Below, piece by piece: positions 10,349-63,372 of a DNA stretch of 64,000 nucleotides (position 1 is its first letter; each line of letters begins with the position of its first letter). Position numbers and translations under genes: made by a program. Origin of the DNA: Gemmatimonadota bacterium (GTDB lineage Bacteria; Latescibacterota; UBA2968; UBA8231); the NCBI GenBank assembly GCA_038153405.1, contig JAYOYH010000010.1, positions 22,751-86,750 of the forward strand, in the 5' to 3' direction. A model generated the notes under the pieces. The model saw nothing but the letters and a program-made list of their open reading frames with translations. It did not search any database and was not told the origin of the DNA.

Positions 10349-10409
10349 GAAAACCCTCCCTTATTCACCAGCATTTGTCTGACAATCTATTCCAAATGCT
10401 CGAAGTACG

Positions 10410-13400
10410 TCAATATGCCACATTGACAATGCGCATCAGCTCGCTGTCGCCCTGATCGGCTTCAACGATGATGCGGCAAATATACATACCCGGAGGCACC
10501 AACGCCCCCGACGCGTCGAGCCCGTTCCAGCGGAACTCCTGCGCACCAACCATCCCGGCCATACCGCTTCCCTGTCCGCGCCCCACCAAGCGCCCACTAA
10601 GGTCGAATATCTCCACACCTAGCGGACGCTCTTCCAACACTTTGAGCAGGGCGAAACGCACGACGAGTTCGTCGTTTATGCCATCGCCGTTCGGCGTAAA
10701 TACAGCCGCCATATCAACGTCTTGAATGAGCGCATCACTCAGCGCCATTAGGCTGACGCGAGCCGTTGAGGATTCGACCAGTTCGGTAGCATCCTTTGAC
10801 GACGTATCAACGCGCTGAAAAACGCCCTCTTCGCCGTTGGACGAACGGACGAAACTGCCAAACTCAATGCCTTCGCGGAAGCTCTGGGATTCAAACTGCA
10901 CCTCGACAATGGCATGGCGTCCTCCCAACAAGTTTCCATTCACCGATTCGGGGAAGCGCACCCATAGCGAGTCGCTGCGCGTAGCCATAACCATGAGCGC
11001 CTCGCCCGCCTCGTTGCGAAAGGTGCCGTCGGCATCCCGACCATAAAACCGCGTGAAATCGGTCTGTACGGCAGTCGTCAGGGAGGCCGTAGGATCGATG
11101 AGAGAGGCCTGTTCAGATACGGATACCGTTCCGACCCGCACGCCTTTCAACTCGGCAGCGAGTGGAGTGACGATAAGAACTTCATTGAAGCCATCGCGCA
11201 CCGTCACGTCAGCCGGATCCGGTGCAGCCGCTCGAATAAAGTACGAGAAGCTCTGCTGCGAAAGGGGATCAACGCCCGTAGGCGCCACGTAATCGACGGG
11301 AAGCGAAAGGAGCTCCGTCACGGGACGGCCCTTACCCTCGTCCGTAAGCAGCGCTAGTTCGCCCGCTAGTTCTAACGACAGGGGCGGCGCCAAATCGACG
11401 CGCAGTTCGCGAACGCGGGCCGTCTTGAACGGTTCTTCGGAGGAAATATTAACGCGAATCTGCAAAAACTTGCGCGGGTTAGGCGAGGTTATCGTCGCCT
11501 CGTTGCGCCCGTTGGTCGGCGCATACGACTCGCTCCACTCGCTCCAGCCGACAAAGGCCAGTTCGCCTTCGCTGTCGTAGGAAGAGCGCGGCTCGCGGCG
11601 GAGTTTCTTTCCGTCTTCGTCTACCAATCCATCGCCGTCGTTGTCGATCAGGTCGATGGGATCTTCATCCGTCACGCCATCGCCGTCGTCGTCGACGCGA
11701 CTCTCGTGCCGTTTGTTGTCTGGCAAGGTCTGCCAGATATTCCATGCGGTCCACTCCAGCACCAGCGCATCGTAGACTTCCTTTGCAACCTCCTGCCGCT
11801 CTTGGGCTCCGGCAATTTCGACCACTTCGTAGTAGGTGAAGTTGGTATCGGTTTGATCGGACGTGCGCGTTTGCACCTGCAGGCGCACGTCGGGATGGTT
11901 CTCCAACGGCTCAATCCGCTCGACGGTTTGCCCGGTAACCGGGTCGGTGTCGCGAATAATCACATCGCCTCCCCAGGCAATCTGCGGCAGCGTTTTGCGA
12001 ATAAACTCCCCGCGCGCATCCGTCAGGGAGATCGGCGGCGAATAGGCCCAAACGCTAACGGGATACCCCTCCCCATAGAGTTGGATCTCGCCGAGGGTTG
12101 CCAGCGAACCATAGCGTCCCGACTGCTGCCCGGTCACGTCGATATCGCGCACCTGCAAAAAGCGGATTTTGCGCGGGGAAAACGTCTCGCGGAATATGCG
12201 CACGACTTGGTCGTGATTGTCCACGTGCTCGGCAGAAATAATGTTGTCCCACTTAAGCCCCTCTTCCAACTGGGGAAAATCGTCGCGCTGTTGCATGCTG
12301 AGCGGCTTGAGCAGCGTGCCGTCTGACACCAAGATATCCGGGCCTAGGAAAGCGCCTAAATGGCTCTGGTTGATGCGCTTGTTAACCACGGAGACGTTAT
12401 CCACCCAGAATACGGCACCCAAATCGTACCAGGCCGTTCCCTTAAGATAGATCGGAGACCACGTATTGGCCTGCCATTCGGAGTCGTAGAGCCCATCCGT
12501 GGCCAACTCGGGGGCTCCAAGGCCACCATTTTCATAGGAGGCGCCACCGCGCTTTTCCGGCTGCAGGGCGTAATTATCGCCCTTGGCCCACACCTGCACT
12601 TCGGAAATGCGCGGCACTTCACGGCTGTAATAGAGTATGGGACCGCGCTTGTCCTCCGACAGGGCTTCAAACTTAGCGCGAGCATTCAGGCCGTTTTCGT
12701 CGTCCTGCAGCTCCACGAGCAGGCCGCCCGCCGTCAGGCGCTGAAAGACCAGTGCACCTCTCTGTTCCGAGGGAAGTGCCTCGTACACCACCCGGCCCTC
12801 TTCCCCAGCCCCGAGGAACGCATCGCGCCACAAATCGGAATCGGTGACCTTAATGCGGATATACTGCAGAAACGTGCCGTCTATATCGGGCAGTCCATCC
12901 AAATCCCAGTCGGCGCGATCTAGCGGGCGGAGGGGAAAGGTCATCTGCACGTAGCGCCCGTCCGTGCCCGGCGTGGGGCGGAGCACGAGTTCGTTAACCT
13001 CTTCTCCTCCACCGCCCGAACACGAGGTGCCTCCGGCATAGCCTGCCGACTCATCGCGCACGCATTGAGCGATTTTTCCGGCGGCAAAGTTGGTCGCAAC
13101 CTGTCCGACGAGCGAGAAGTTCAGGCTGTTACCCAGTGGAAAGGGAAAGCGCTCGCCCATGGACGCAAAAACGGCAAATGATTTCAGTGGTTCACCGAGA
13201 AATTCTTCTCCTACCTGGCCAGCCGGAAAAATAACCGTGACGCTGTCGACGTAAACCAAACGCCCTAGGTCGATTTCCAATTCCCACTTGCGCAACCCAT
13301 CGACGGAAAACTCGTGCGTTTCGTCGAGGCGACGCTCGTAGTTGGAAGCAACGGAGGGTTCCCAGTAGGTCTCGAGATTGTCGTCAAGGATAGCTAAGGA

Positions 13401-13751
13401 CCGGGTGTTATTGGATAAACTGCTGGCCCCACCGCTGACCACATCGCCGCCAGCGCGCACCAAATCCTTATAGCTAAAGTTGGCTGCCGTAGGGCCGATG
13501 TTGATATTGCGCCGATAAAAGACCGGACGCATCCCCTCCGCATCGACCTGAAAGATGTCGGCGTCGGTAATGGGCACGTTAAGCGAACCGACGAGGTCGT
13601 TTTGATAGCTCCAATTGAGCCAATGCGAAGCCCTATCGACTCGAATCGAGTTGCCAAATAGCCTGTAGGCGTCACCGACCTGAGACAGTGCAGGGACTGC
13701 CAACAGGACTCCTAGCAACACAGCGTGGCACACAGTCATCCGATTTTTCAT
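10410..13751 (-). CDS. T9SS cargo protein (1113 aa) with two N-terminal discoidin (F5/8 type C)-like domains and a C-terminal T9SS sorting domain
   Basis: Signal peptide MKNRMTVCHAVLLGVLLAVPALSQ. ILDDNLETYWEP...ELEIDLGRLVYVDSVTVIF and ATDGLYDSEWQ...YDLGAVFWVDNVSVV match the discoidin pattern. An acidic DDDGDGVTDEDPIDLIDNDGDGLVDEDG calcium-binding-like stretch is present. The C-terminus FTPNGDGINDELVVRF....VNVAY has the gliding-motility/CHU_C-type T9SS CTD signature. Confidence 0.75.
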   Translation of the reverse strand: MKNRMTVCHAVLLGVLLAVPALSQVGDAYRLFGNSIRVDRASHWLNWSYQNDLVGSLNVPITDADIFQVDAEGMRPVFYRRNINIGPTAANFSYKDLVRAGGDVVSGGASSLSNNTRSLAILDDNLETYWEPSVASNYERRLDETHEFSVDGLRKWELEIDLGRLVYVDSVTVIFPAGQVGEEFLGEPLKSFAVFASMGERFPFPLGNSLNFSLVGQVATNFAAGKIAQCVRDESAGYAGGTSCSGGGGEEVNELVLRPTPGTDGRYVQMTFPLRPLDRADWDLDGLPDIDGTFLQYIRIKVTDSDLWRDAFLGAGEEGRVVYEALPSEQRGALVFQRLTAGGLLVELQDDENGLNARAKFEALSEDKRGPILYYSREVPRISEVQVWAKGDNYALQPEKRGGASYENGGLGAPELATDGLYDSEWQANTWSPIYLKGTAWYDLGAVFWVDNVSVVNKRINQSHLGAFLGPDILVSDGTLLKPLSMQQRDDFPQLEEGLKWDNIISAEHVDNHDQVVRIFRETFSPRKIRFLQVRDIDVTGQQSGRYGSLATLGEIQLYGEGYPVSVWAYSPPISLTDARGEFIRKTLPQIAWGGDVIIRDTDPVTGQTVERIEPLENHPDVRLQVQTRTSDQTDTNFTYYEVVEIAGAQERQEVAKEVYDALVLEWTAWNIWQTLPDNKRHESRVDDDGDGVTDEDPIDLIDNDGDGLVDEDGKKLRREPRSSYDSEGELAFVGWSEWSESYAPTNGRNEATITSPNPRKFLQIRVNISSEEPFKTARVRELRVDLAPPLSLELAGELALLTDEGKGRPVTELLSLPVDYVAPTGVDPLSQQSFSYFIRAAAPDPADVTVRDGFNEVLIVTPLAAELKGVRVGTVSVSEQASLIDPTASLTTAVQTDFTRFYGRDADGTFRNEAGEALMVMATRSDSLWVRFPESVNGNLLGGRHAIVEVQFESQSFREGIEFGSFVRSSNGEEGVFQRVDTSSKDATELVESSTARVSLMALSDALIQDVDMAAVFTPNGDGINDELVVRFALLKVLEERPLGVEIFDLSGRLVGRGQGSGMAGMVGAQEFRWNGLDASGALVPPGMYICRIIVEADQGDSELMRIVNVAY

Positions 13752-13808
13752 ACTCTATCCTCTTTGAGGAGCATTTCGCGCAGATCGTCGCAATGCGTTT
13801 CCCGCAGC

Positions 13809-16259
13809 TTAATAGGCGACGGAAATGAGTTTCGTTCTCGCCTCGCCCGCATCGTCCGCTTCCGTCGACAGCCGCAATATGTATAGTCCTGGCGGCACCA
13901 GGCTGCCCATGTCGTCCCTTCCATCCCACTGTTCTGAATAGCCACCTGAGTTCAGCAAGCGCTCGATGAGGCGCAGGCGGTTCCCATTCAGATCGTATAC
14001 CGCAAGCAGGACCGCGCGGGGCTCTAACAAGCGCTGGACGTCAAAGCGGACCTCTAACAGATCGTTGACCCCGTCGCCGTTCGGTGTAAAAGGGTTGGGA
14101 GTCGTTTCGAAGTTCGCAACTAAATTGCTCCCCTGCGCCGAGATATCGGCGATAACCGCAAGCGAGTTGCGGTCGGAAAGCTGCTCTGTAGCATCAAAAT
14201 CGATGACATCGCTGCCCTCGACCGGCTGCGGCAGAAAGAGAGCCAAGGTGTCGGCAGCTGCGCCCAACGTGAGGATTCCGTTATTGGTAAAGCGGCGATC
14301 GAAGCTCGATGCCAGCGTATCCAAGAACACGTTGGCCGCGAAGTTGGTGCGGAAGTCAATCACGCGCGCGCGGAAGTTGACTTTCACAACCGCCTCCCGA
14401 TCCAGCCCATCGTCACCGGGGGCAATCGTCGGAAATCCGATCACAAATTGCTCGTCATCAACGAATAGCGCGCTGAACTGATCATCATCGAAATCGGGGT
14501 TTTCGCTGGCAGACAACATGCGCACATCGCCGGCACCCATATCGATTGACACAGATTGAATGTTTTCGACGCGGGCAGGCGTGAAGACCTGCAGCCGATT
14601 GAAACCGTTGTTATTCGCTCCCAGGGACGCTCTAATCGCAATGGCGAAGGTCGTGTCTATACCAGCCTTGACGTCGACCGCGGGAGCGATCTCGCCGACC
14701 ACGGCGTCGGTGATCTGCGGCGCCGAGTATTCAAAGCGCAGGTTGCGCACAATCGTCGCCGACTCCGATGATAAACTTCTGAACTCAACATCGATCTGAA
14801 TAAAGGGCCTACCACTCGGCGAGTTGATGAGCTGGCCATTGGTCACCTGCTGCACGCCGCTCCAGTACTCGAGATCCGGCTCAATTTTCCTGCGCAAGTT
14901 GCCGGGCAGCGCCTGATATTCGGCGCGCGTCAGACGAACGGATTCGCGCTCGTCGGGCAGCAGCGCGCTGAATATTTCGCGAACTTCTAGGTTGAACTGT
15001 GGGTCGTTCAAGTCGATCTGCTCGCCGCGCGTCTTCGATCCGGCGCGACGGTCCACTACAATAGCGTTTTCCGGCTTCCACTCGACCTGACGCTCGAATT
15101 CGTTGACGCGAAACAGCACATCCGGCTCGGCATTAACACCCGTCTGAATGCGCACGATGGCACTCGACTTGGTCGGGTCACCGACCTTATCCTCTTCCCA
15201 AAAAATGCGACCAAGGGTCGACGGCGGCAGCGGCAAGGCGATAGAGCGATAGGTCGCCTGCGGCACAAAGCCGTCGGCAAAGAATTCCATCTCGCCCAAA
15301 TCATAGTCGAGTTCGGTCTGAAAGTCCATGCGCGCGTAGCGCATTTTGGCGGGCGGATCGAACGCCACCGCCACTGTGTCCTCGACGTTAACGGGCGCAC
15401 TCTGCTCGGGAACAAAAGTGGGAAACGTCGGGGCAATTTTGGTGAATATGGGAAAGGCCAACTGACCGACGGTCGGATCGTCCAAGCTCAAGCCGGCAAT
15501 GACTTTTTCCGTGCCGGCAATACCCCGATAGAACGTGTAGGCAGAAATGCGAACGGGCGCCTCCGGACTGGGATATACCCGCATGAGGCGAATGGGAAAA
15601 AAGCGTCCGAGGTCGACATACAGCGTCCAGACCTGCTTGACGTCCTGCCCAACGCGGTCGATGCGCTCAAAGTGGGTAAGCGGATCGCCGTCAAATACGC
15701 GGCCCAATCCCTCTTGGAGCCGCTGTAAGGTCAGCGCACGCTCAAAAATACCCAGTGTCGTGAGATTGAGACCCTTATTGTATTTGTCTCCTCCCGGCGG
15801 GCGCGGAAACGACTCCGCTACGTTAATCAGCGCAGCGACCGTATCCACGCCGGCTAGGCGCAGCATCTGCACGTCTTCCAGCGACCGAGGAAAGTCACCC
15901 CAGCGCGAAATGAGCACATCACCAGCGGCCACGGAGCGATCGCCGAGGGTGGCATCCAGCTGCGCTACGACTTCGGATCGGGCAACGTGTTGCGAAAATT
16001 CAAATAGAATGGAGTCAGCACCAGCGCTGCCCTCCTCAACCTGCGGGACAGGCACCATTTGCACCGGCTCGATCGGCGCAATCCCGTCGGGAACGCGTAG
16101 GAGATCGACGGCTTCGAGATAGCGCTGCTCGGAGATAGGTCCCTGTTTGGCATCAACCCAGGAGATATCTTGCGGAATGGAAAAGATCTTGAGTTCGGCA
16201 GGGCTTTCGCCCACCAGGCCCGCCAGCACTGCTACGGCGATACGCTTTGACCATCTCAT
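13809..16259 (-). CDS. T9SS cargo protein (about 816 aa) with C-terminal T9SS sorting domain; paralogous over its C-terminal half to the 1113-aa neighbour
   Basis: C-terminus FTPNGDGVNDLLEVRF...LISVAY. The preferred start is MRWSKRIAVAVLAGLVG at 16259 (signal-like, GGAGAG upstream) rather than the acidic MNEESDPESQG start at 16292. The region FIQIDVEFRSLSSESATIVRNLRF...IRA aligns with QIRVNISSEEPFKTARVRELRV...IRA of the downstream protein. Confidence 0.7.
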   Translation of the reverse strand: MRWSKRIAVAVLAGLVGESPAELKIFSIPQDISWVDAKQGPISEQRYLEAVDLLRVPDGIAPIEPVQMVPVPQVEEGSAGADSILFEFSQHVARSEVVAQLDATLGDRSVAAGDVLISRWGDFPRSLEDVQMLRLAGVDTVAALINVAESFPRPPGGDKYNKGLNLTTLGIFERALTLQRLQEGLGRVFDGDPLTHFERIDRVGQDVKQVWTLYVDLGRFFPIRLMRVYPSPEAPVRISAYTFYRGIAGTEKVIAGLSLDDPTVGQLAFPIFTKIAPTFPTFVPEQSAPVNVEDTVAVAFDPPAKMRYARMDFQTELDYDLGEMEFFADGFVPQATYRSIALPLPPSTLGRIFWEEDKVGDPTKSSAIVRIQTGVNAEPDVLFRVNEFERQVEWKPENAIVVDRRAGSKTRGEQIDLNDPQFNLEVREIFSALLPDERESVRLTRAEYQALPGNLRRKIEPDLEYWSGVQQVTNGQLINSPSGRPFIQIDVEFRSLSSESATIVRNLRFEYSAPQITDAVVGEIAPAVDVKAGIDTTFAIAIRASLGANNNGFNRLQVFTPARVENIQSVSIDMGAGDVRMLSASENPDFDDDQFSALFVDDEQFVIGFPTIAPGDDGLDREAVVKVNFRARVIDFRTNFAANVFLDTLASSFDRRFTNNGILTLGAAADTLALFLPQPVEGSDVIDFDATEQLSDRNSLAVIADISAQGSNLVANFETTPNPFTPNGDGVNDLLEVRFDVQRLLEPRAVLLAVYDLNGNRLRLIERLLNSGGYSEQWDGRDDMGSLVPPGLYILRLSTEADDAGEARTKLISVAY

Positions 16260-16349
16260 TCCTTGGCTCTCCGGGTCAGATTCCTCATTCAATACGCGAT
16301 AAAGGGCGAGATACTAAACGGCAGGAAGGTTAGAGCACGCGTTTGTCCT

Positions 16350-26609: not shown

Positions 26610-28457
26610 TTAGGACCGATACGCCTCTTCGATTAGCGCGCCATAGCGCTCGACGATGGCCTTGGGAACGACCTTCTTGAGACCGCGCGTCAGGGTGCCA
26701 TCCTCTTCGCTGAGCGGGTTGGGCAAGAGCGCGATGCGCTGCGGCCGCTCGTGGCCGGGCAGGCCGGCGGCACGCGCTTCACCAAGCAGCTGTGCGCGCA
26801 CCAATTCGGCTATCTGTGGATGGACGCGCAGGGCGTCCTCGCCGATGCCCTGTAGCTCATCGGGTGCGTGTTTTTGCGCCTCTTCGACGTCGACTACGAC
26901 CAGCGGCAGAGGAAAGTCGCGCTGCTGGTCGCCGCAGATCAAAACGTGCTCGACCAACGGCGCGCGCGCAAAGATGCGCTCCAGCAGTTCCGGGTTGACA
27001 AACTCGCCATTGCGCAGCTTGAACTGGCGACCGACCCGACCGCGAAACGTCAGAAAGCCCTCCTCGTCCATACTGAACAAGTCGCCGGTGCGATACCAAA
27101 TCTGTCCTTCGTGCTCGACGAGAGCCCGCTGCGTCTGCTCCGGATCGTCCAAATAGCCGCGCATGACGTTGGCCCCGCTGGCCCACAGTTCGCCCACGCG
27201 TCCCCCGCCGGGCCGATAGATGCCCTCACCCTCGGGATCCCCGTAGCCTATTTCACCGCCCTGATCATCGACGATACGCACCTTGATCAGCGGCCGTCCC
27301 ACGGTGCCGACCTTGCGTCCGCCCAAATGGTTTGCGGCAATCAGCGGCGCGCACTCCGTAGCGCCGTAGCCCTCGAACGTAGTGATGTCCAAGACTTGGT
27401 GAAAAAAGTCCAGCGCCTCTGGATCGGCCTTGGCTGAGCCCACGATAAGCACTTCCAGATTAGCGCCCACGCGCGTGGCAAACTGCTGGCGAATCTTATC
27501 GATCACCTTGGCGCCGACCAGTGCAAAAAACAAGCGATCGACCGCCGTTGCCTCGCCCCTGCTCAATCGCTGTTTGGCCGTTACGGCGCGTTTGATAAGA
27601 GCCCCTTTCACCCCACCGGCCTGAATCTCTTTGCGCACATTGCCGTAGACCTTGTCGAGAATCAGCGGCACCGTGAGAAAGCCGTGCGGTTCCGAAAGGC
27701 GGATATCGCTCAGCACGCGATCGGGCGAACGCGCCATGTCCAGCACCCAGCCCTTAGCAAGCGGGTAGTATATGTTCAGGATGCCCATCGAGTGGTAGTC
27801 CGGCGCGGACTTGAAAAAGCGAAAGTCCTCGCGCAGGCTAATCACATCCCACGCTTCCTCTACATTGGCGACGATATTGGCATGAGTCTGTATAACGCCC
27901 TTGGGCATGCCGGAAGAACCCGATGTATAGAGCACCTTGCTCTCGTCATCGGCACTTATTTCCACGTCGGGTAAATCGCCCTCCGCGCCGACCAATTGCT
28001 GCCAGGCAGCGGCCGCTTCTCCCTCGCCGTCTACCAGCACCAACTGGGGCGGGGCGGGCATATCCTGCAAGACGTTTCCCAGCGCCTCGGCTCCCTTGCG
28101 ATCGACCACCAGCAGCGCCATGCCCGAGTGGCGGATGTTGTAAGCGAGGATTTCTGGCGACGACTTCAGGCAAAGCGGCACGCTACTCAGCCCTAACCGA
28201 TCGCAGGCCAGAAATACCAGCAGCGGTTCAAAGCCGCCGTCGGTGAGAATGCCGATGCGCTGTCCTTTGACCATCCCGCGACCGGCCAATCCAGCGGCCA
28301 GTCGGTCGCGCTGCGATTTTAGCTCTGCATAGGTCATGGGCTGGTACTGTGCATCCCTGCTGCCGGGAGGCAGCACGCGCACGGCCACTCGTTCAGCACA
28401 TTCGGTAAAACTCCGCTCCAATAATTCCGCAAGTGTTCGCACGTTGGTAGGCTCCAT
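26610..28457 (-). CDS. AMP-dependent synthetase/ligase (long-chain acyl-CoA synthetase-like)
   Basis: The AMP-binding motif LYTSGSSGMPKGV is present. YGATE, the YRTGD hinge and a C-terminal lysine region also fit. The gene encodes 615 aa. Confidence 0.8.
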   Translation of the reverse strand: MEPTNVRTLAELLERSFTECAERVAVRVLPPGSRDAQYQPMTYAELKSQRDRLAAGLAGRGMVKGQRIGILTDGGFEPLLVFLACDRLGLSSVPLCLKSSPEILAYNIRHSGMALLVVDRKGAEALGNVLQDMPAPPQLVLVDGEGEAAAAWQQLVGAEGDLPDVEISADDESKVLYTSGSSGMPKGVIQTHANIVANVEEAWDVISLREDFRFFKSAPDYHSMGILNIYYPLAKGWVLDMARSPDRVLSDIRLSEPHGFLTVPLILDKVYGNVRKEIQAGGVKGALIKRAVTAKQRLSRGEATAVDRLFFALVGAKVIDKIRQQFATRVGANLEVLIVGSAKADPEALDFFHQVLDITTFEGYGATECAPLIAANHLGGRKVGTVGRPLIKVRIVDDQGGEIGYGDPEGEGIYRPGGGRVGELWASGANVMRGYLDDPEQTQRALVEHEGQIWYRTGDLFSMDEEGFLTFRGRVGRQFKLRNGEFVNPELLERIFARAPLVEHVLICGDQQRDFPLPLVVVDVEEAQKHAPDELQGIGEDALRVHPQIAELVRAQLLGEARAAGLPGHERPQRIALLPNPLSEEDGTLTRGLKKVVPKAIVERYGALIEEAYRS

Positions 28458-28649: not shown

Positions 28650-31601
28650 ATGAGCGGCGAAAAATTCGACAAAAAACGTGCGGAAGCGGAGGTCTCCAAT
28701 GGGGAAAGCCTTCTGGAAGGCCTAGAGTCGCTCTTGGCCGAAGAAGGGCTCAGCCTCGAAGGCGAGATCGATGAAGAAGAACTCGACCTTCTACTTGAAG
28801 GGGATGGCGATCTCGGCGAGGAAATTAAAGGGGAACCCGCACCCCGCAACCGCAGCCGCAGCGCCCAGCGCTCAAAGGGAACCGAACGGCGCAGCCGCGA
28901 CCGCGCCGACTTTCACAACCTCGATACCCAGATGCAGGTTGCCCCCCTCGGCGTCATCGTATCGCAAGATCAGCTAACCGCAACGCTGTCGCACATTACA
29001 GAAGACCACGACTACGAAACTGTGATTGAGCTCATTCGCAGTCGCGGCATATCGCATGGCATCGACTACGTCGCTATCCGCTCGGCGATCAATAGCGCCC
29101 GGCGCGGCATATCCTGCCGCGAACTAGTCATCGCACGCGGTCACCCGCCGCAACGCATTAAAGAAGCATCGACAGTCTATCGCCTACCCGTCGAAGTCAT
29201 GCAGAAGAAAAAACCTTCGGACAAGATGACGGACTTCGAGCTGTTAAAGCACATCCTCGAGGGCCGGCATATAGAGGCGATTCGATCGTATCGCGGCGTG
29301 GTCAGACCCGTCATACCCGGCGATGTCATCACCGAAATTATTCCGGCTGAGATAGAACCCGGCGTGACGGTCTTTGGCACGCCGTTCGACTTGGAACAAG
29401 ACGATGAAGTCTACCTGCAGATTGGCGACAATACCGACTTGTCGGAAGACGGCCTAAGCTGTGTAGCCTCCATATATGGGTATGCCGGAATACTGGATGG
29501 CGTCCCGACGGTCCTCCCTCCGATTTGGATTAGCCCGGACCGCATGGATGCCTACTTCGTCTTTATTGCGCCGGCCGAGGGCTACGCCCAACCCGCGCCT
29601 TCGATAGAGGACTTGAACTACCTGCTGGAGATGATGTGGATCAGCAATGGTATTATGGAAAAGCAGGTTCTCCTCATCCAACAGCGCCTCGAACGCGCCC
29701 ATCCCCTACCCTCTCTGCTGCCCATTGCCCAAGGCCATCACGAAGTGCCCGGCGACAATGCGCAAATACACTATACCTTCGACCCCTATTCCATCCTGTC
29801 GTGGAACCAAATTGAGGCAGTGCAGTCCATGCAGTCGCCCGAGGAAATATGCGAAGCGCTCGATGCTATTTACTCCGATCCAGCCGCTCCGACATTCACC
29901 GCTATGGGCACGGGACACACGCTCATCGAAAAGACGCCGGCCACTGTAGGCGTCACCGGCGTCGACATACAGGGCGAAGAAGTCGTTCCCAAACCGGGCG
30001 ATGACCTGCAGATCGAATTTGGCAGCTTTCTTTACCTAGACAAAAACGGGCTGCGCTGTCGCGCAGAGGTCTTTGGCTACGTGTGTCTACAGTGGGACAT
30101 TCAAGTCCGTCTGCTGCCGCCGCTATGGATTACGCCCGATAAGACGCGCGCCTACTTTCTCAACCTGCCCCAGGGATCGTCGCCGCGCTATCCCCAGCTA
30201 AACGAGATAGAGGCCCTGTTCCAGCAGTACGACATCACCTATGGCTTCGATCCAGAGCGCTGGCTGAGCGCTCTCGGGCAGCTGAAAAAAGGAGAGCAGA
30301 ACGACTACCTCATCCTAATTGCGGAAGGCGAGCCGGCGCAGACCGGCCGCGACGCCTATTTCGAGTGGAACGTCGACGTGCTCGAAGAGAAGAAAATCGG
30401 CAAGGTGCTCGAAGATGGCTCGATCGACTTCCGCGAGCGCGATCTGATTACGCTAGTACAGGAAAACGATCTATTGGGGCGACTAATCCCTCCCCTACCC
30501 GGCACGGAGGGCAAAGATATATTCGGCAACCCGCTAAGCCCACCACCGCACGTCAACATCGAGGTGGTCATCGACTCGCACGTCTACGCCAAACCAGAGC
30601 AAGACGGCGTTATTGGCTTCTTTGCCAGTAAAGACGGCGGGATCTCGGTCCTATCTAAAGACAAAGAGGCAAACGGACGGCGTTCGCGCCGAATTGATAT
30701 CAGTATCAACTCGATCTCGAGCATTGACGGCGACGTCGACTACACGACCGGCAATATCGATTTTAACGGAGACGTCGTCATCGACGGCTCGGTGCAACAG
30801 CAGTTTTCGGTGCGCGCAACGGGCAGCGTCACCATCGGCGGCTACGTCGAGTCTGGGGCGTATATCACCGCCGGCAAAAACATCGTGGTCAAACGCGGCG
30901 TCATCGGCGATACGACGGAGCTAATCGCAGGCGCGAGCATCATCACCAAGTACGTCCAGGAGTCTACTGTGCGGGCGGGCGGCGACATCCGCGTGGGCTC
31001 GTATATATTCAATGCCTCCGTGCGTGCCGGGGGACAGGTCGTCGTTTCCGGCAAAGGCGAAGGCAAGTCACGCGCCCTAGTCGGTGGCTTAGTATGGGGC
31101 GGGCGCGGCATCCTCGCCAAGTCCATCGGCTCGCCCTATAACACCAATACTAAGCTAGTAGCTGGGATCAATCCGGATTCGGTCGAGCGCATCGATAAAA
31201 TTCGAGCCAACCTTATCACCTGCGGAGAAAAACAGGAAGCGCTGCTGGCGCACATTGGCCTTTCCAGCATGGATATCGCCCAGGTCAAGAAAAAGCTGTC
31301 CTTTTGCCGCACGGACAAGGATAAGCAGAAGATCTTGCAAGTCGTCAAGCGCATCGCCCACGTTGCCGAGCTGGAAGACAGCCTGCAGCAGGAGTTGGAA
31401 GATATCGCAGATAGACAGCGCAAAACATCGCTGCGCACCGTTATCAGCATCCATGGGAAACTCTTTGCCGGCGTAGAATTGCGCATTGGCGAACTGACCC
31501 ATTTGATTAACGAAGATCTGCAAAATATCAGCTTTGGCATTGTGCAAAGCGACGACGAACAAACCATACAGGTGGGGCCATTCAGAGGCTCGTCGCGCTA
31601 G
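28650..31601 (+). CDS. FapA/DUF342-like protein (983 aa) with acidic-then-basic N-tail, duplicated FapA_N-like domains, a right-handed beta-helix region and a C-terminal coiled coil
   Basis: The beta-helix repeats read SVRATGSVTIGGYVESGAYITAGKNIVVKRGVIGDTTELIAGASIITKYVQESTVRAGGDIRVGSYIFNASVRAGGQVVVSGKGE. The C-terminal coiled coil is LQQELEDIADRQRK. The internal duplication is clear (SEDGLSCVASIYGYAGILDGVPTVLPPIWISPDRMDAYFVFIAP vs DKNGLRCRAEVFGYVCLQWDIQVRLLPPLWITPDKTRAYFLNLP). Confidence 0.6.
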   Translation: MSGEKFDKKRAEAEVSNGESLLEGLESLLAEEGLSLEGEIDEEELDLLLEGDGDLGEEIKGEPAPRNRSRSAQRSKGTERRSRDRADFHNLDTQMQVAPLGVIVSQDQLTATLSHITEDHDYETVIELIRSRGISHGIDYVAIRSAINSARRGISCRELVIARGHPPQRIKEASTVYRLPVEVMQKKKPSDKMTDFELLKHILEGRHIEAIRSYRGVVRPVIPGDVITEIIPAEIEPGVTVFGTPFDLEQDDEVYLQIGDNTDLSEDGLSCVASIYGYAGILDGVPTVLPPIWISPDRMDAYFVFIAPAEGYAQPAPSIEDLNYLLEMMWISNGIMEKQVLLIQQRLERAHPLPSLLPIAQGHHEVPGDNAQIHYTFDPYSILSWNQIEAVQSMQSPEEICEALDAIYSDPAAPTFTAMGTGHTLIEKTPATVGVTGVDIQGEEVVPKPGDDLQIEFGSFLYLDKNGLRCRAEVFGYVCLQWDIQVRLLPPLWITPDKTRAYFLNLPQGSSPRYPQLNEIEALFQQYDITYGFDPERWLSALGQLKKGEQNDYLILIAEGEPAQTGRDAYFEWNVDVLEEKKIGKVLEDGSIDFRERDLITLVQENDLLGRLIPPLPGTEGKDIFGNPLSPPPHVNIEVVIDSHVYAKPEQDGVIGFFASKDGGISVLSKDKEANGRRSRRIDISINSISSIDGDVDYTTGNIDFNGDVVIDGSVQQQFSVRATGSVTIGGYVESGAYITAGKNIVVKRGVIGDTTELIAGASIITKYVQESTVRAGGDIRVGSYIFNASVRAGGQVVVSGKGEGKSRALVGGLVWGGRGILAKSIGSPYNTNTKLVAGINPDSVERIDKIRANLITCGEKQEALLAHIGLSSMDIAQVKKKLSFCRTDKDKQKILQVVKRIAHVAELEDSLQQELEDIADRQRKTSLRTVISIHGKLFAGVELRIGELTHLINEDLQNISFGIVQSDDEQTIQVGPFRGSSR

Positions 31602-31611
31602 GAGATCCTCC

Positions 31612-33252
31612 ATGAAACTCGGCATTGGGCTATTGATTTTCACATCGATCACCCTGAGTCTGGCCTCCCGTGTGTATGCACAGGATGAAGATGAAACGAC
31701 GCGCCCCGCCTTGAGCGGCAGCATGGGCAGCGTCACCATTGGCCAAGAGCAGTTCTACCGACTCAGCATGCGACCCGATATCCCCGTCGGCCGATGGGGT
31801 TTCGCTCTCGACATCGAGCTATTTATCGATTCGGAGGGGGATGTCAGCGCGCGCGGCTGGCGCTTTGGTTCGTCGACGGAGGCACTCGACTCCTTTCTGC
31901 GCAAGATTTACTACGTGCGCTACGGGCGTCCGAACGACCCGCTCTACTTCAAGATTGGCGCCTTGGACAGAGTCGGACTCGGCTATGGGCTCATCATGTC
32001 CGACTACAGAAATACCCTGCAGTATCCCGGCATAAAAAAGACGGGCATCCAATTCCGCTTTGAAGAAATCGCTGGAAGCCCTCTCGGCATAGAGGGCGTA
32101 GTGAATAATATCCAGGACTTTCAAGAGGGAGGCGGCCTCATCGGCCTGCGCGCCTTTGCCCGCGCGATGGGCAAACTCGAACTGGGTGTGACCTACGTCG
32201 TCGACCTCGATCAGTACAGCGGGCTGCGCGACCGCGACGGCGATGGCTTTCCCGACGAGGTAGACGCCTTTCCATCAAATAGCCAGCTATCCCTAGACAA
32301 CGACGGCGACGGCGTGCCCGACCAGATCGATAGCGACGACGACAACGACGGGGCCATCGACATCGACAGCGAAAGCGGCGTACCGCCCGCCGTGGCGGCG
32401 GCCCTAGAACAACTGAATGCCGACTATGGCGACGCCTTTGCCGTCGATACGGAGGTATCCCGCAGAAAGCCCTTTAACCGCGACCAGGTCGGACGCGATC
32501 GCTTTGCCATATTTGGTGTTGACGCGGGCTACCCGCTCAGCGAACGAGATGCACTGCAGCTCAAACTATACGGCCAATTTGCCCTGCTCGTAGACGACGA
32601 AGACGACATCAGCGCATTCGAGGCGAACGCTCAGGGCCTAGTGCCGGGCAATCGCCGCGCCGAGGGCTGGGGCCTTGCCGCCCCGGGCCTATGGCTCAAA
32701 GCCGGCCCCCTGGACGGCCAAATTGAGTTTCGCCATTTTCGCGACGACTTTGACGCGCGCTATTTCGACGAACTCTACGAGCTCGACCGTGCGCGCATTG
32801 ACGTGGCCTCGGGGCGCGCCCGCCCCAAAGACGCCCTGCTCGACCACAGCGATCCGCTATCCGGCGTATTCGGTCGCCTTGGAGCGGATTTGGGGTCGTA
32901 CCTCTACGCGTCGGCCGCCTACCAATACCTGTCTGGCAGCGACGATCCCAAGCAGCAGCTGTTGACTAATGTGCGCCTGGCCCCCTCCCTGTTGAAGTCC
33001 ATACCGCGCCTTACTCGCGCCCGCGCCTACTATCAAAAAAATAATATCGGCGCGCGACTCAACGAGGAGGGCACGGGGCCCGATGGCTTTTTCGAATCCA
33101 CCGAGGATGCGTTCTACGGCTACGAACTGGGGCTGGCGATGAGCGGCGGCGTCGACGTGCTGTGGGATACGCGCTTCGTATTTGAACGAGATGCCAATCG
33201 CCAGCTGCGGGCGCGCAAAATTATGACCATCGAAACGGTATTCACCTTCTAA
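31612..33252 (+). CDS. Outer-membrane protein with thrombospondin type 3-like calcium-binding repeats (547 aa)
   Basis: The start is adjusted to MKLGIGLLIFTSITLSLASRVYAQ (signal peptide, GGAGAT RBS). The tool's longer start would overlap the previous gene. DRDGDGFPDEVD...DNDGDGVPDQIDSDDDNDGAIDID matches TSP3 repeats. The C-terminus is IETVFTF (a terminal Phe is typical of beta-barrel OMPs). Confidence 0.6.
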   Translation: MKLGIGLLIFTSITLSLASRVYAQDEDETTRPALSGSMGSVTIGQEQFYRLSMRPDIPVGRWGFALDIELFIDSEGDVSARGWRFGSSTEALDSFLRKIYYVRYGRPNDPLYFKIGALDRVGLGYGLIMSDYRNTLQYPGIKKTGIQFRFEEIAGSPLGIEGVVNNIQDFQEGGGLIGLRAFARAMGKLELGVTYVVDLDQYSGLRDRDGDGFPDEVDAFPSNSQLSLDNDGDGVPDQIDSDDDNDGAIDIDSESGVPPAVAAALEQLNADYGDAFAVDTEVSRRKPFNRDQVGRDRFAIFGVDAGYPLSERDALQLKLYGQFALLVDDEDDISAFEANAQGLVPGNRRAEGWGLAAPGLWLKAGPLDGQIEFRHFRDDFDARYFDELYELDRARIDVASGRARPKDALLDHSDPLSGVFGRLGADLGSYLYASAAYQYLSGSDDPKQQLLTNVRLAPSLLKSIPRLTRARAYYQKNNIGARLNEEGTGPDGFFESTEDAFYGYELGLAMSGGVDVLWDTRFVFERDANRQLRARKIMTIETVFTF

Positions 33253-33268: not shown

Positions 33269-34381
33269 ATGAAAATAACCGCCGTCCGCGCCCACGTGTT
33301 GCGCCTGCCCGAAGTCAGTGCCATTTGCGAAGGCACGCAAGATACCTGCCTAATTCATATAGAAACCGATGCGGGTATCAGCGGCTGGGGCGAAGTCGAC
33401 TCCTGTCCGAGCGTAGTCAAGGCGGTGATCGAAGCCCCGCTGTCGCACCAGATCTGCAACGGCCTGGCCAACGCCTTGGTGGGCGCCGATCCGCTGGCTG
33501 TCGAGGCCTGCATGGCGCGCATGGATGCAGCAGCGAACTACTACGGGCGCGTCGGCGTGGGCGCCCCCCCCCAGGCCCGCATACACCACGCGCTGTGGGG
33601 TATAGCCGGCCAATCCCACGGGGCCCCCCGCCCCCACCGGCCTTGGGGGCCCCTTAATACGAAGTTTCGCGCCTACTGCTCCATTCTCTTCGGCGATACA
33701 CCCAAAGCGACATACGAACTGGCGCGCCAACACGCCGATATGGGATTTACCGCCATCAAATTTGGCTGGGGGCCAATGGGGCAGAGCGAAGAGAGCGACA
33801 TCGCTCTTGTGCGCGAAGCGCGGCGCGGCGCCGGAAACGACGTCGATGTGCTCGTTGACGCCGGTCAGGTTTGGGACTGGAAAACGGCCCTGCAGCGCGC
33901 CGAGGCCTTTGCCGAATACGGCATCTTCTGGCTGGAAGAGCCGCTGCACCCCCAAGACGTGGCCGGCTATGCCCAGCTCTGTGGCTCCTCTCCGGTGCCC
34001 ATTGCCACTGGAGAAGCCGAATCGAATCTGCAGGATTTCGAGCGCCTGCTCATCGAAGGCGAAATCGACTGGGTGCAGCCCGATCCGGGCCGCTGTGGCA
34101 TATCCACCATGGTCGAGGTGGGCCGTTTGGCACACAGACTGCACCGCAAGGTAGTCAACCACAGCTTTAAGAGCGGCATCACCATTGCCGCGTCACTGCA
34201 CGGCTTAGCCGCCGTGCCCCATGGCGCACTCTTCGAGTATTGCATGGCCGATTCGCCGCTGCGTCACGAGCTAACGCGCGAGACGTTTGACGTGGTCGAC
34301 GGCTACGTCCACGTGCCCCAAGCACCCGGATTGGGCGTGACGATCAACGAGGATACGCTGGCCAAATTCCTGGTGGCCTAG
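33269..34381 (+). CDS. Enolase-superfamily enzyme, MR/MLE subgroup (dipeptide-epimerase-like)
   Basis: 370 aa. The N-terminal capping domain is MKITAVRAHVLRLP...GISGWGEVD. Barrel motifs are present: KFGWG, a DAGQ metal-Asp region, LEEP and ATGE. Residues 95-130 are compositionally odd, coinciding with C/G homopolymers. Confidence 0.65.
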   Translation: MKITAVRAHVLRLPEVSAICEGTQDTCLIHIETDAGISGWGEVDSCPSVVKAVIEAPLSHQICNGLANALVGADPLAVEACMARMDAAANYYGRVGVGAPPQARIHHALWGIAGQSHGAPRPHRPWGPLNTKFRAYCSILFGDTPKATYELARQHADMGFTAIKFGWGPMGQSEESDIALVREARRGAGNDVDVLVDAGQVWDWKTALQRAEAFAEYGIFWLEEPLHPQDVAGYAQLCGSSPVPIATGEAESNLQDFERLLIEGEIDWVQPDPGRCGISTMVEVGRLAHRLHRKVVNHSFKSGITIAASLHGLAAVPHGALFEYCMADSPLRHELTRETFDVVDGYVHVPQAPGLGVTINEDTLAKFLVA

Positions 34382-34473
34382 GGCACACCGGCTCCCACGC
34401 TTCACATCCGCAACACGCAACGGGCCCTGTAGCCCATTACGCGCTCGGCGCACATACCAACGGCGGGGCTCTT

Positions 34474-35607
34474 ATGTCGACACACCCGATGCTCATACTC
34501 GATGGTCACCTCGACCTGGCATACAACGCGCTCTTTCACCGGCGCGACCTGACCCAAGACGTCTATGCGCTGCGCGAGCGCGAAGATCCGCGCCCACCGG
34601 GACCGGCCCATCCAGACTCGCTGCGCGAGCGCAAGCGCCAGGAAAGCCCGGCCAAGGGCACGGCGACGGTTGCCCTGCCCGATATGCGCCGCGGCCGGAT
34701 CGGCATCGCCCTTTCGACGATTATGACGCGCGTGCAAATGCCCACGCAAACCCTCGATGACGGAGCGCGCACGCAGCTGGCCGCCCATGCCCTCGGACAG
34801 GCGCATCTGCACTACTACAAAGCATTGGAGCGCGAGGGGCACCTGCGCTTTATCCACGGCATAGACGATTTAGACGCCAGCATTCAGGCGTGGTCTGCCC
34901 CGGCACCCGACGCACCGATTGGCCTAATTTTATCGATGGAAAGTGCGGACTCCATTCTCGGACCCGACCAGGTTAGCTGGTGGTACGAACAAGGGCTGCG
35001 CTCGGTTGGCCTGACGCACTTTGGCGCCAATACCTGGGGACACGGCACCGGCACGCGCGGCGGCCTGTACGCCTGTGCCTATCCCCTACTCGACGCGCTA
35101 TCCGAAACCAATATCGCGCTCGATTTGACGCACGCTGCCGACCTAACCTTCTGGCAGTTGCTCGACTACTGGCAAGGTGCCGTGCACGCCAGCCACTGTA
35201 TGTGCCGCACGCTCGTGCCCGGCCAGCGCCACCTGAGTGACGATATGATCAAGGCCCTCATCGAACGCGGTGGCGTGATCGGCATAGTCTTCGCCGAGTA
35301 CATGCTCAACCCGGAAATCGACTTCGACAACCCGGCGACCTACCCGCGCACGGCGCGGCGCAGCATGAGCGCCGCCATTGACCACGTCGACCACATTTGC
35401 CAACTGGCCGGCAACTGCCAGCACGTGGCCATCGGCTCCGATCTCGACGGCGGCTTTGGCCGCGAGCTCTCACCCACCGATCTCGACACCATTGCCGACC
35501 TGCAGCGCTTTCTCGACCAGCTAACGCGCAGGGGCTATAGCACGGCGGATATAGAGGCCATTGCCCACGGCAATTTGGTGCGCTTTTTTCGCCAGACCTG
35601 GAGTTAG
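34474..35607 (+). CDS. Membrane dipeptidase family (peptidase M19) protein, copy 1
   Basis: 377 aa. The N-terminal LILDGHLDLAYN motif is the zinc His/Asp motif. Amidohydrolase-fold blocks (GLTHFG...HGTG, HASH, GSDLDGG) are present. Confidence 0.7.
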   Translation: MSTHPMLILDGHLDLAYNALFHRRDLTQDVYALREREDPRPPGPAHPDSLRERKRQESPAKGTATVALPDMRRGRIGIALSTIMTRVQMPTQTLDDGARTQLAAHALGQAHLHYYKALEREGHLRFIHGIDDLDASIQAWSAPAPDAPIGLILSMESADSILGPDQVSWWYEQGLRSVGLTHFGANTWGHGTGTRGGLYACAYPLLDALSETNIALDLTHAADLTFWQLLDYWQGAVHASHCMCRTLVPGQRHLSDDMIKALIERGGVIGIVFAEYMLNPEIDFDNPATYPRTARRSMSAAIDHVDHICQLAGNCQHVAIGSDLDGGFGRELSPTDLDTIADLQRFLDQLTRRGYSTADIEAIAHGNLVRFFRQTWS

Positions 35608-35610
35608 ACC

Positions 35611-36696
35611 ATGAGCGACGAACGCCCTCTCATACTCGACAGTCACCTCGACCTCTCCTTTTCCGCCCTGCAAATCAACCGCGACCTGACCCAGCCGGCA
35701 GCGACGGTGCGCGCGCACGACTCGGTCGCAACCATGGAAGGCTTTGGCTCCTGCACCGTCACCCTACCCGAGTTGCGCAAGGGCAAGGTCGGCCTAGTGT
35801 GCGGCACGGTAATGTCGCGATTAGACCCCGACGACAAATGGACGCGCACCGGCATGTACACCCAAGCCCAATGCCACGGCGTTGGCCGGGGGCATCTGGC
35901 CTACTATCAAGCATTGGAACGAGCAGGGCATATCCGCTTTATCAAAACGACAGCCGAACTCGATGCAGCCGTTGCCGCCTGGCAAGACCCCCCTGCCGAC
36001 GAGCCGATCGGCCTTATCCTCGCCATGGAAAGTGCAGACCCCATTCTCGGTCCCGACCAAGTGTCCGAATGGTATGACCTAGGCCTGCGCATGGTGAGCA
36101 TTTCGCACTATGGGACCAGCGCCTACTCGCACGGCACCGGCACCGAGGGCGGCCTGCTGCCCACGGCCAAACCGCTGCTCGATGCGCTGCGCGCAGCCGG
36201 CATCATCGTCGACGTCACCCACCTGACCGACCAGGCGCACTGGGAATTACTCGATGCGTACGACGGTCCCATTGCCGCATCGCACCACAATTGCCGCGCC
36301 CTGACACCCGGACAGCGCCAGCTAACCGATGAAATGATCCACTCCATAGCCGAGCGCAACGGCGTGATCGGCGCAGCGCTCGACGCCTGGATGCTCGATC
36401 CAACCTGGCAGCGCAAGGTGCCCGCTTTTGGCCAGCAAACCCAGGCGACCTTAGAGACCGTTGCCGACCATATCGACTACATTTGCCAGCTGCTGGGAAC
36501 GGCGCGCCACTGCGGCATCGGCACCGACTTAGACGGCGGCTTTGGCACCGAACAGGCCCCGCGCGACCTCAATACCATCGCCGACCTGCAGAAGTTGGTC
36601 GCCATCTTCGAAGGGCGCGGCTACGACCCAGCGACGATTGCCGGCATTTTTTCCGGCCACTGGATCGACCTCTTTCGCCGCACCTGGTCGCGCTAA
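35611..36696 (+). CDS. Membrane dipeptidase family (peptidase M19) protein, copy 2 (tandem paralog)
   Basis: 361 aa. LILDSHLDLSFS, SHYGT..HGTG, ASHHN and GTDLDGG run collinear with copy 1. The gene starts 4 nt after the copy-1 stop. Confidence 0.7.
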   Translation: MSDERPLILDSHLDLSFSALQINRDLTQPAATVRAHDSVATMEGFGSCTVTLPELRKGKVGLVCGTVMSRLDPDDKWTRTGMYTQAQCHGVGRGHLAYYQALERAGHIRFIKTTAELDAAVAAWQDPPADEPIGLILAMESADPILGPDQVSEWYDLGLRMVSISHYGTSAYSHGTGTEGGLLPTAKPLLDALRAAGIIVDVTHLTDQAHWELLDAYDGPIAASHHNCRALTPGQRQLTDEMIHSIAERNGVIGAALDAWMLDPTWQRKVPAFGQQTQATLETVADHIDYICQLLGTARHCGIGTDLDGGFGTEQAPRDLNTIADLQKLVAIFEGRGYDPATIAGIFSGHWIDLFRRTWSR

Positions 36697-56419: not shown

Positions 56420-57772
56420 CTATCCTCCTATATCTAGGCCATTGAGTCGAGCCACCGCATCGGCCAGGACCTGTACTCCAAATAGCACATTGGCCTCCGA
56501 TACGCGCTCGTCGTGTCCGTGACACAGATCAAAAAACTCCAGACCGCGTTCCCAGCGCATCGGCACAAAGCCGTATACGACCATATCAAAATCGACGAGA
56601 AAGCGCGCATCGGTGCCCCCCGTTTGCATATAGGGAACGGCAATGCCATTCGGCTCGAAGCGCTGTAGAGCACAGGCCAGGGCATCAAAGAGCGGCGTCC
56701 GGTGGTCGAACTCGACTCCCGGGCGAAAAGAGTGCATTGCATAGCGCAGATCGCTTCCGGCCAGCGCCTCTACTTCGGTTAAGAACTCGACCTCGCTCAC
56801 ACCCGGCAGCGGCCGACCGCTCAGCTGCACCGTCGCCTGCGAGGGGATCACATTGCGCTTGACACCGGCCTCGAGCACGGTCGGCGCACAGGTGTTGCGC
56901 ACCATGGCGTCAAACATGCCGCGCGCCGCCGCGTTGATCGGCAGCTGGGCCAGCGCAGCGTCGCAGCGCTGAGCGTCCAACAGCGCCCGCAGGTTTTCGG
57001 CAACCTGTGCGTCGCCTTGCGCATCGGCGGCGCATTCAAAAAAAGCGCGCACGCTGGGCGGCGGGCGATGCGGCATCTTACCTCCGGCCATTGCAGCCAG
57101 CGCAGCGGCCAGGTGGAAAATGGCATTGTCGTCGTGTGGAACCGAGGAATGCCCCGGCCGACCGGCGGCCACCAAATCGAGATTGGCCGACCCCTTCTCT
57201 CCCACCTGCACGGTATAGAGAAATTGATCGCCCACCGGAATGGCAAAACCACCCGCTTCGTTGATGCCAAACTCGGCGTCAAAAAGCTGTGGATGTTCGC
57301 GCACCAACCACTCGACGCCGCAGTGACCGCCAAACTCTTCATCCGCCGCCGCCACCAGGACGATATCCCGTTTGAGGGGCAGGTCCAAGCGCTTTGCCAG
57401 CGAGACGATCTGCATATGCAGCGCACCGGTCAGCTTCGAATCAATGGCACCGCGCCCCCAAACAAAGCCTTCCGAGCGCATCCCGGCAAAGGGAGGATAG
57501 CGCCATTTATCGGGCTCGGCCGGCACCACGTCCAAATGCGATAACAGCAACAGGGGACGTTGGCTGCCGTTCCCGCGCAGGCGCACCACTAAATTGCCGC
57601 GCTTTTCCGCCGATACCAGCACGTCGCTTTCTACCCCCCACGACGTCGCCTCGGCCGCTAGGTCGCGCGCCAGAGCCAACTCATCCCCCGGCGGATTCAC
57701 CGTATTAAAGCGCAGCATACGCCCCAGGCGCTCCAGCGCTTCTTCTCCTTCTGCATGCCAATCAATGTGCAT
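56420..57772 (-). CDS. M20-family metallopeptidase (ArgE/DapE/ACY1-like amidohydrolase)
   Basis: LSHLDVVPA is the His/Asp metal site. The GRGAIDSK motif and AADEEFGG are present. The gene encodes 450 aa. Confidence 0.75.
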   Translation of the reverse strand: MHIDWHAEGEEALERLGRMLRFNTVNPPGDELALARDLAAEATSWGVESDVLVSAEKRGNLVVRLRGNGSQRPLLLLSHLDVVPAEPDKWRYPPFAGMRSEGFVWGRGAIDSKLTGALHMQIVSLAKRLDLPLKRDIVLVAAADEEFGGHCGVEWLVREHPQLFDAEFGINEAGGFAIPVGDQFLYTVQVGEKGSANLDLVAAGRPGHSSVPHDDNAIFHLAAALAAMAGGKMPHRPPPSVRAFFECAADAQGDAQVAENLRALLDAQRCDAALAQLPINAAARGMFDAMVRNTCAPTVLEAGVKRNVIPSQATVQLSGRPLPGVSEVEFLTEVEALAGSDLRYAMHSFRPGVEFDHRTPLFDALACALQRFEPNGIAVPYMQTGGTDARFLVDFDMVVYGFVPMRWERGLEFFDLCHGHDERVSEANVLFGVQVLADAVARLNGLDIGG

Positions 57773-63360: not shown

Positions 63361-63372
63361 AATAGTCTCCGT

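Follow-up and report, generated by a model that had tools for sequence, protein, structure and literature searches.

A three-module FapA/DUF342 protein beside an outer-membrane beta-barrel in a Latescibacterota-like genome: a gene adjacency that is probably inherited rather than functional

The FapA/DUF342 proteins form a very large family for which hardly any mechanistic literature exists and no structure has been solved. Vibrio vulnificus FapA is brought to the cell pole by HubP and ties flagellation to glucose (PMC12918733, citing Park 2019); it is the one FapA for which polar localization and a role in flagellar assembly are known. In Borrelia, fapA (bb0267) lies in an operon with flhF, flhG and flgV, and in flagellar superoperons FapA is found together with sigma-28 (PMC11607428); flagella are also encoded by Latescibacteria single-cell genomes (PMC4454575). 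Here a 64,000-nucleotide stretch of contig JAYOYH010000010.1 (assembly GCA_038153405.1, Gemmatimonadota bacterium; termed here the window) is analyzed, in which a gene for a 983-residue FapA-like protein is directly followed by the gene for a 546-residue outer-membrane protein (OMP). An earlier, sequence-only reading of this DNA had proposed that the two proteins are coupled. The analysis instead favors, with good confidence, the view that their adjacency is a gene order inherited within one Latescibacterota-like clade and not a functional module, because relatives have lost FapA repeatedly while always retaining the OMP.

That the 983-residue protein belongs to the FapA/DUF342 family, as the sequence-only reading had supposed, follows from both of its Pfam domains: over the entire chain, FapA_N (PF20250; gathering score 27 bits) matches in four stretches with E = 5.5e-70, and the beta-solenoid profile FapA (PF03961; gathering score 31 bits) matches with E = 1.4e-53 (bit scores and coordinates are given in Table 1). 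The same reading had counted 'two to three' tandem FapA_N copies; that there are several copies holds, and their number is exactly three, since each of three pieces exceeds the FapA_N threshold separately, the fourth stretch arising because insertions divide modules 1 and 2. Self-BLAST aligns the modules with one another at 22-30% identity and reveals a motif, LPP[IL]WI[ST]PD[RK], that is repeated at module boundaries; module 3 is the copy nearest to the Pfam profile. The beta-helix and coiled coil that had been assigned to the remainder of the chain are likewise present: scanned separately, residues 691-983 score 186.9 bits against FapA (cut-off 31), with a weak MinC_C match at residues 711-753, and the coiled coil corresponds to a predicted helical hairpin at residues 842-929.

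A homologue search with the FapA-like protein gave 18 matches at 40-88% identity, of which 17 full-length or near-full-length homologues share a common start methionine. Across these 17 there are about 130 invariant columns, and regional pairwise identity is 50-76% for the modules and solenoid, being highest in the solenoid (76%) and 50-57% in the modules. An AlphaFold2 (AF2) model built from their alignment has a mean per-residue confidence (pLDDT) of 77.5 and a predicted TM-score (pTM) of 0.38, the value to be expected of a beads-on-a-string arrangement; every domain is folded confidently. The predicted layout consists of a disordered tail with short helices (residues 1-97), three similar alpha/beta-plus-hairpin modules, the beta-solenoid, the long hairpin and a C-terminal beta domain. 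No signal peptide, hydrophobic core or transmembrane segment is apparent on sequence inspection, and the AF2 model contains no membrane helix; the protein is thus presumably cytoplasmic. A profile of the protein found nothing meaningful among PDB sequences, and Foldseek comparison of the model with the PDB gave no match at E < 0.001. The protein resembles V. vulnificus FapA and Borrelia burgdorferi BB0267 in combining FapA_N, a beta-solenoid and a helical hairpin without a secretion signal, but differs from these studied examples in having three FapA_N modules and a charged, disordered tail of 95 residues.

The stop codon of fapA (TAG, 31599-31601) and the start codon of the OMP gene (ATG, 31612) are separated by 10 nt, a close spacing that the sequence-only reading had rightly noted. 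A mechanical list of open reading frames (ORFs) places the OMP start at TTG 31534, but the real start is ATG 31612, which is followed by a signal peptide with cleavage between MKLGIGLLIFTSITLSLASRVYA and QD; in the identical contigs L078 and L079, genes called independently give the same 546 residues and an equal 10-nt spacing. Given this spacing, the two genes are probably co-transcribed in this genome. G+C content is uniform over the region, and a scan of it for sigma-70 promoters and terminators performed no better than on shuffled sequence. The OMP has no Pfam match (E <= 1) and no PDB sequence relative on profile search; it has more than 248 homologues (60-93% identity among the matches listed), none with a Pfam annotation. 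AF2 predicts a barrel of about 20 strands (pLDDT 69.8, pTM 0.67), for which Foldseek returns Wzi, MOMP, Occ and AlgE (E about 1e-7 to 1e-6, probability 1.0, TM about 0.3). The signal peptide, the aromatic C-terminal beta-signal and this modeled fold together identify the protein as an outer-membrane beta-barrel. It shares those features with the 18-strand barrels (Wzi, Campylobacter MOMP, OccD/OccK and AlgE), from which it differs in its TM of only about 0.3, in a sequence identity of 8-10% and in an inserted loop of about 90 residues bearing an invariant aspartate ladder.

Both genes lie within a syntenic block, the order of which is LarA, NTP-transferase, acyl-CoA synthetase (acs; minus strand), FapA, OMP, an MR_MLE enzyme, two M19 dipeptidases and acetolactate synthase (ALS). 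This order is conserved with FapA in L001 and L075-L077 and without FapA in L002; close homologues of both proteins come from metagenome-assembled genomes (MAGs) labelled Candidatus Latescibacterota or 'Gemmatimonadetes'. Conservation of the pairing, on which the sequence-only reading had made its case depend, holds in part. All orthologues of at least 46% identity for which downstream DNA was read precede the OMP gene, among them P0013, P0004, P0016 and P0007 (46-63% identity), each with the OMP directly downstream; the most distant orthologue, however (P0017, 40% identity), which shares the architecture and the tail, has a fucosidase gene on the opposite strand behind it and no OMP neighbor. 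To view the pairing from the other side, OMP-anchored loci were collected: a scan of genome contigs with the full OMP alignment was dominated by the generic DDDNDG pattern and yielded 5 true loci, and a scan of metagenome contigs with the N-terminal barrel region yielded 57, of which collections 40 loci are informative. FapA is directly upstream of the OMP in 17 of these (the window included) and is absent from the other 23, among them loci on a 5.36-Mb contig and a 5.9-Mb chromosome; in 21 of the 23 the distance between the acyl-CoA synthetase gene and the OMP is 78-2393 bp. The OMP (60-93% identity among the matches listed, more than 248 matches) is also more conserved than the FapA-like protein (40-88%, 18 matches). 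The pair is therefore not retained or lost jointly across these loci: FapA is missing from 23 of the 40 informative OMP loci, remnants of it persisting in 13, and the 40% orthologue has no OMP beside it.

Several features of the FapA-less loci indicate that the gene was deleted repeatedly. When sister loci are compared by blastn, deletion scars appear between L036 and L038, between L023 and L027, and between L047 and both L049 and L053; what L038, for instance, retains of a gene that is intact in L036 is 82 bp from the interior and some 180 bp at the 3' end. Searching the acs-OMP intergenic regions by tblastn with FapA proteins detects fragments (E = 7e-8 to 3e-54) in 13 of the 23 FapA-less loci (L015, L018-L021, L027, L034, L038, L043, L044, L049, L053 and L054), whereas the shortest acs-OMP gaps gave none by the same search. 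The fragments contain frameshifts and in-frame stops, and gain of fapA by insertion was rejected in view of such in-place remnants. Loci with and without FapA are intermixed on a neighbor-joining tree of the OMPs: about 12 independent losses are counted if only loss is allowed, and conservatively at least 8 once tree error is allowed for. Repeated deletion of fapA with the OMP kept means, therefore, that the OMP is a stand-alone, strongly retained protein and FapA a dispensable neighbor.

Several further features of these loci may be recorded here. The last 60-290 bp or so of fapA is the commonest remnant (9 of the 13 remnant-bearing loci), and signals for OMP expression may lie within this 3' end. 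A terminator-like hairpin with a T-run (CCCTCCGTTT...AGACGGAAGGCATTTTTTT) occurs between the fapA stop and the OMP in L039 (~5790-5910) and between a fapA remnant and the OMP in L054 (~1010-1130); in these two lineages the OMP gene is probably transcribed as a unit of its own. At L007:3898-6857 the fapA orthologue spans three reading frames, implying two frameshifts, which stem from faulty assembly or else mark a pseudogene at an early stage. Downstream of the OMP in the window, the MR_MLE gene (33269-34381, plus strand) is 77% identical to its L002 orthologue but locally unrelated over codons ~98-128 (APPQARIHHALWGIAGQSHGAPRPHRPWGPLN versus THAMAGVNLALWDIAGKARGCPAYELLGGPYQ), which may be a compensated frameshift.

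The sequence-only reading had set the extra N-terminal modules against the single one of canonical FapA, but they are not peculiar to the window protein. At E <= 0.001, an exhaustive phmmer search matched 9,356 cluster representatives of DUF342; some 20 clusters with lengths of 890-1000 residues are collinear with the window protein down to 27-31% identity, and many DUF342 proteins of 660-860 residues match from module 2 onward. The number of Pfam FapA_N stretches in individual examples is 1 (465 residues), 2 (678 and 742 residues), 3 (905-976 residues), 4 (1003 residues; P0283) or 7 (1481 residues; P0190), which shows that the number of tandem FapA_N modules is a general design variable of the DUF342 family. 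Several three-module paralogues bear the names of the same phyla, the existing annotation being 'DUF342 domain-containing protein' or 'flagellar assembly protein A'. The three modules recur in collinear order in, for example, P0157, P0154 and P0161 (946-972 residues; source MAGs labelled Latescibacterota or Gemmatimonadota), often with an acidic N-terminal L-E-x-[IL]-L helix, but these proteins are only 27-31% identical to the window protein. The three-module protein is real, yet it has precedent, and because it is collinear with paralogues this divergent its three-module form is old.

Two of these paralogues, P0157 and P0154 (29-31% identical to the window protein), are not adjacent to the OMP. 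Their loci (L072:1-22919, L073 and L074:1-22865) encode histidine kinases, single-domain and hybrid response regulators and a protein that joins a response-regulator domain to HDOD and HD domains, together with one extra, shorter DUF342 gene per cluster (595 residues in L072, 466 in L074); these clusters suggest a signaling context for the DUF342 family in these phyla. One of the modules of P0190, the protein with seven FapA_N stretches, is matched by Pfam Multi_ubiq as well (4.4e-6), a hint that FapA_N is in part of a beta-grasp-like fold.

The N-terminal tail of the window protein is first acidic and then basic, as had been noticed from the sequence: residues 20-62 hold 17 D/E and 1 K/R, residues 63-90 hold 9 K/R and 3 D/E, and the basic run ends in a conserved R-D-R-x-x-F-x-N-L-D motif. 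AF2 gives a pLDDT below 50 at residues 1-19, 37-80 and 90-97 and predicts short helices at residues 21-31, 42-49 and 81-94. The segment that stands out in the tail by its conservation is an acidic amphipathic helix, LLEGLESLLAEEG, the core of which is L-E-S-L-L. At the N-termini of DUF342 proteins, L-E-x-[IL]-L with acidic residues after it is enriched about 5-fold (14 of 127 representatives versus 31 of 1332 internal windows), and an acidic helix of this kind also begins P0139, P0140, P0157, P0161, P0163 and P0175. In FliM and FliY, an N-terminal 'EIDALL' peptide binds CheY-P and FlhG, and the L-E-S-L-L core is taken here to be comparable to that peptide. By this analogy, and in keeping with the signaling genes around P0157 and P0154, the helix might be a peptide that docks either a protein with a receiver domain or an ATPase of the MinD/FlhG type, with the three FapA_N modules forming a multivalent platform, although so specific a role is unlikely.

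The OMP had been described as carrying thrombospondin type 3 (TSP3) repeats, and in this respect its loop is TSP3-like by motif but not by profile. The loop, an insertion of about 90 residues between the strands at residues 189-202 and 295-312, contains the repeats DRDGDGFPDEVD, DNDGDGVPDQID and DDDNDGAIDID, which display the D-x-D-x-D-G-x-x-D-x-x-D motif, and in 39 OMP homologues the aspartates at positions 207, 209, 211, 215, 218, 229, 231, 233, 237, 240, 242-244, 250 and 252 are invariant. Pfam TSP_3, on the other hand, does not match the OMP at E <= 1, and the NCBIfam models MtsC, MtsD, BamM and CglD match weakly and within the Asp loop only (12-15 bits against cut-offs of 315-800; for MtsC and MtsD, 13-15 bits against 350-800). 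The likeness to the TSP3-repeat surface regions of MtsC, MtsD, CglD and the C-terminal domain of BamM (from the Flavobacterium beta-barrel assembly machinery, BAM) lies in these repeats; the difference is that in the OMP they form a loop within a barrel rather than a lipoprotein domain or an adhesin. The comparable region of BamM is shaped by seven calcium ions at the cell surface (PMC12611786). Away from the loop, both flanking strands run into short turns (residues 185-189 and 312-315); the loop is therefore probably on the extracellular side and surface-exposed, and its aspartate pattern suggests that it probably binds calcium.

Three more specific identities for the OMP were considered and rejected. 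It is not BamM, since NCBIfam NF053691 scores 12.2 bits against a cut-off of 315, over the Asp loop only, and since the OMP is a barrel and not a lipoprotein with a peptidyl-prolyl isomerase domain; nor is it BamG, which is of the FadL type, FadL being absent among the Foldseek matches listed. Nor is it a peptide porin tied to the MR_MLE enzyme and the M19 dipeptidases, as distant OMP homologues have other neighbors and the association is one of local synteny only. These distant homologues (35-47% identity, without a Pfam match; L057, L061, L063 and L068) adjoin uvrB, radical-SAM, lexA or kaiC-like genes, and because these are unrelated housekeeping genes the OMP family can be said to extend past the syntenic clade without a fixed partner gene.

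Taken as a whole, these data make it probable that the locus encodes an accessory, cytoplasmic FapA-like scaffold beside an independent, core OMP. By analogy with the FapA proteins of Vibrio and Borrelia, the FapA-like protein would most likely act as an adaptor or scaffold that is recruited to a machine for polar or signaling functions: its most conserved part, the C-terminal right-handed beta-solenoid with the helical hairpin, may form a self-association or anchoring unit, the three ancient tandem modules a series of partner-binding modules, and the disordered, charged tail with its conserved acidic helix a docking motif. It would serve an accessory system, flagellar or signaling, that many lineages have dropped. 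The OMP would be a core, highly conserved barrel of an unnamed family, with an Asp-ladder loop that is probably surface-exposed and calcium-binding. Several points weigh against this picture. Wherever a FapA orthologue of at least 46% identity occurs and downstream DNA was read, the OMP directly follows (20 of 20 loci; gap mostly 3-13 nt), and constant close adjacency whenever FapA is present is also how operon partners would appear; the neighbor-joining tree behind the loss count is rough; and a scaffold, polar or flagellar role would lean, by analogy, on two distant homologues. Moreover, no flagellar gene (flhF, flhG, fliA and flgV included) or chemotaxis gene was found by Pfam among the ~45 ORFs of the window, in contrast to fapA of Borrelia and many other bacteria, which lies in a flagellar flhF/flhG/fliA neighborhood (PMC11607428). 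Such surroundings are typical of many family members, but the Pfam definition does not demand them.

The constant adjacency, together with the 10-nt gap, the Shine-Dalgarno-like AGGAG that overlaps the fapA stop, and the survival of a fapA 3' end that could carry OMP expression signals, might instead indicate a functional two-gene module, in which the FapA-like protein positions, regulates or is co-regulated with the OMP, for example within an envelope-associated polar structure. This is quite improbable: the two proteins reside in different compartments, and neither has a predicted envelope-spanning element; the OMP is kept at 57-93% identity in the 23 loci without FapA, 13 of which hold decayed remnants; P0017 has no OMP neighbor; in L039 a terminator-like hairpin separates the two genes; and acs, MR_MLE, M19 and ALS are just as syntenic. 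What had been put forward as functional coupling of FapA and the OMP thus looks like local synteny from which FapA alone has been lost; this coupling, the surprising part of the proposal, is not supported, and current ideas are not overturned. A gene for a large beta-solenoid protein immediately upstream of one for an outer-membrane barrel also recalls two-partner secretion (TPS; type Vb), that is, a secreted beta-helical exoprotein with a dedicated transporter, yet the FapA-like protein has neither a signal peptide nor a TPS domain; the OMP has no Pfam match, hence none to POTRA, ShlB or Omp85, and Omp85-type chains are absent among its top Foldseek matches; FapA, according to PMC12918733, works with the polar landmark protein HubP; and the OMP persists without its supposed cargo. 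Such a system is extremely unlikely here. Finally, the repeated loss of fapA among relatives and the frameshifts in L007 could mean that here, too, fapA is a duplicate that has no function or is decaying, but the ORF is intact over 983 codons, its modules and solenoid are conserved in 17 homologues and AF2 folds all of its domains, which makes decay very unlikely. An accessory FapA-like scaffold beside an independent OMP remains the preferred interpretation.

The rest of the window contains metabolic genes and encodes a TonB-dependent receptor, ParA/ParB and a DNA ligase, along with several large proteins that lack annotation. Three consecutive large ORFs on the minus strand at 7595-16292 (917, 1113 and 827 residues) have no Pfam match, except that the 827-residue protein bears a C-terminal signal for type IX secretion (CHU_C), and probably encode secreted or surface proteins of an unnamed kind. 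At 57776-60666 (minus strand) are two adjacent paralogous ORFs of 476 and 487 residues whose only matches, to MR_MLE_C (enolase C-terminal-like), are weak and do not exceed the Pfam cut-off; they are immediately followed by a gene for an M20 peptidase (56420-57772), and upstream on the same strand (60776-63987) are genes of the arginine pathway: argininosuccinate lyase, an acetylornithine-type aminotransferase and an amino-acid kinase.

Table 1. Features of the fapA-OMP region, in window coordinates.
Feature	Coordinates	Strand	Evidence
Acyl-CoA synthetase (AMP-binding), divergent; upstream border of block	26610..28457	-	Pfam AMP-binding on orthologues; tblastn synteny
Whole fapA-like gene including stop, 983 aa	28650..31601	+	ATG ORF; Pfam FapA_N 234.8 bits, FapA 182.7 bits; homologues 40-88% identity
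Disordered N-tail, aa 1-95	28650..28934	+	No Pfam match; low pLDDT; charge counts
Conserved acidic amphipathic helix LLEGLESLLAEEG, aa 20-33	28707-28748	+	Pairwise identity 71% versus 40% for entire tail
FapA_N module 1, aa 96-294	28935..29531	+	Alone 76.5 bits; insertion splits match; self-BLAST to module 2 E = 6e-8
FapA_N module 2, aa 293-494	29526..30131	+	Alone 62.6 bits; self-BLAST to module 3 E = 3e-9
FapA_N module 3, aa 493-691	30126..30722	+	Alone 108.5 bits; spans profile positions 5-175 of 178
Beta-solenoid (aa ~691-841), antiparallel helical hairpin (842-929), small C-terminal beta domain (930-983)	30720..31598	+	Pfam; AF2
Junction: TAG stop overlapped by AGGAG, 7-nt spacer, OMP ATG	31599..31611	+	Sequence read
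Outer-membrane beta-barrel (OMP), 546 aa	31612..33252	+	Signal peptide aa 1-23; C-terminal beta-signal ...ETVFTF; AF2; Foldseek
Asp-rich TSP3-like loop, aa ~203-252 (entire insertion to aa ~294)	32218..32367	+	Asp ladder; weak NCBIfam matches; low pLDDT 202-247
MR_MLE enolase-superfamily enzyme and two M19 dipeptidases, downstream syntenic genes	33269..36696	+	Pfam on orthologous loci

Within a family as large and as little studied as DUF342/FapA, the lineages with and without fapA constitute a natural gene-loss series, which could be mined for the partner system by phyletic correlation. The OMP family, which is well conserved in Latescibacterota-like MAGs, lacks a Pfam model and has an invariant calcium-type loop, merits definition as a family. 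If the acidic helix were indeed a docking peptide, then the giant DUF342 clade would consist of signal-regulated scaffolds rather than strictly flagellar factors, and the repeated loss of fapA would follow the loss of its partner system.

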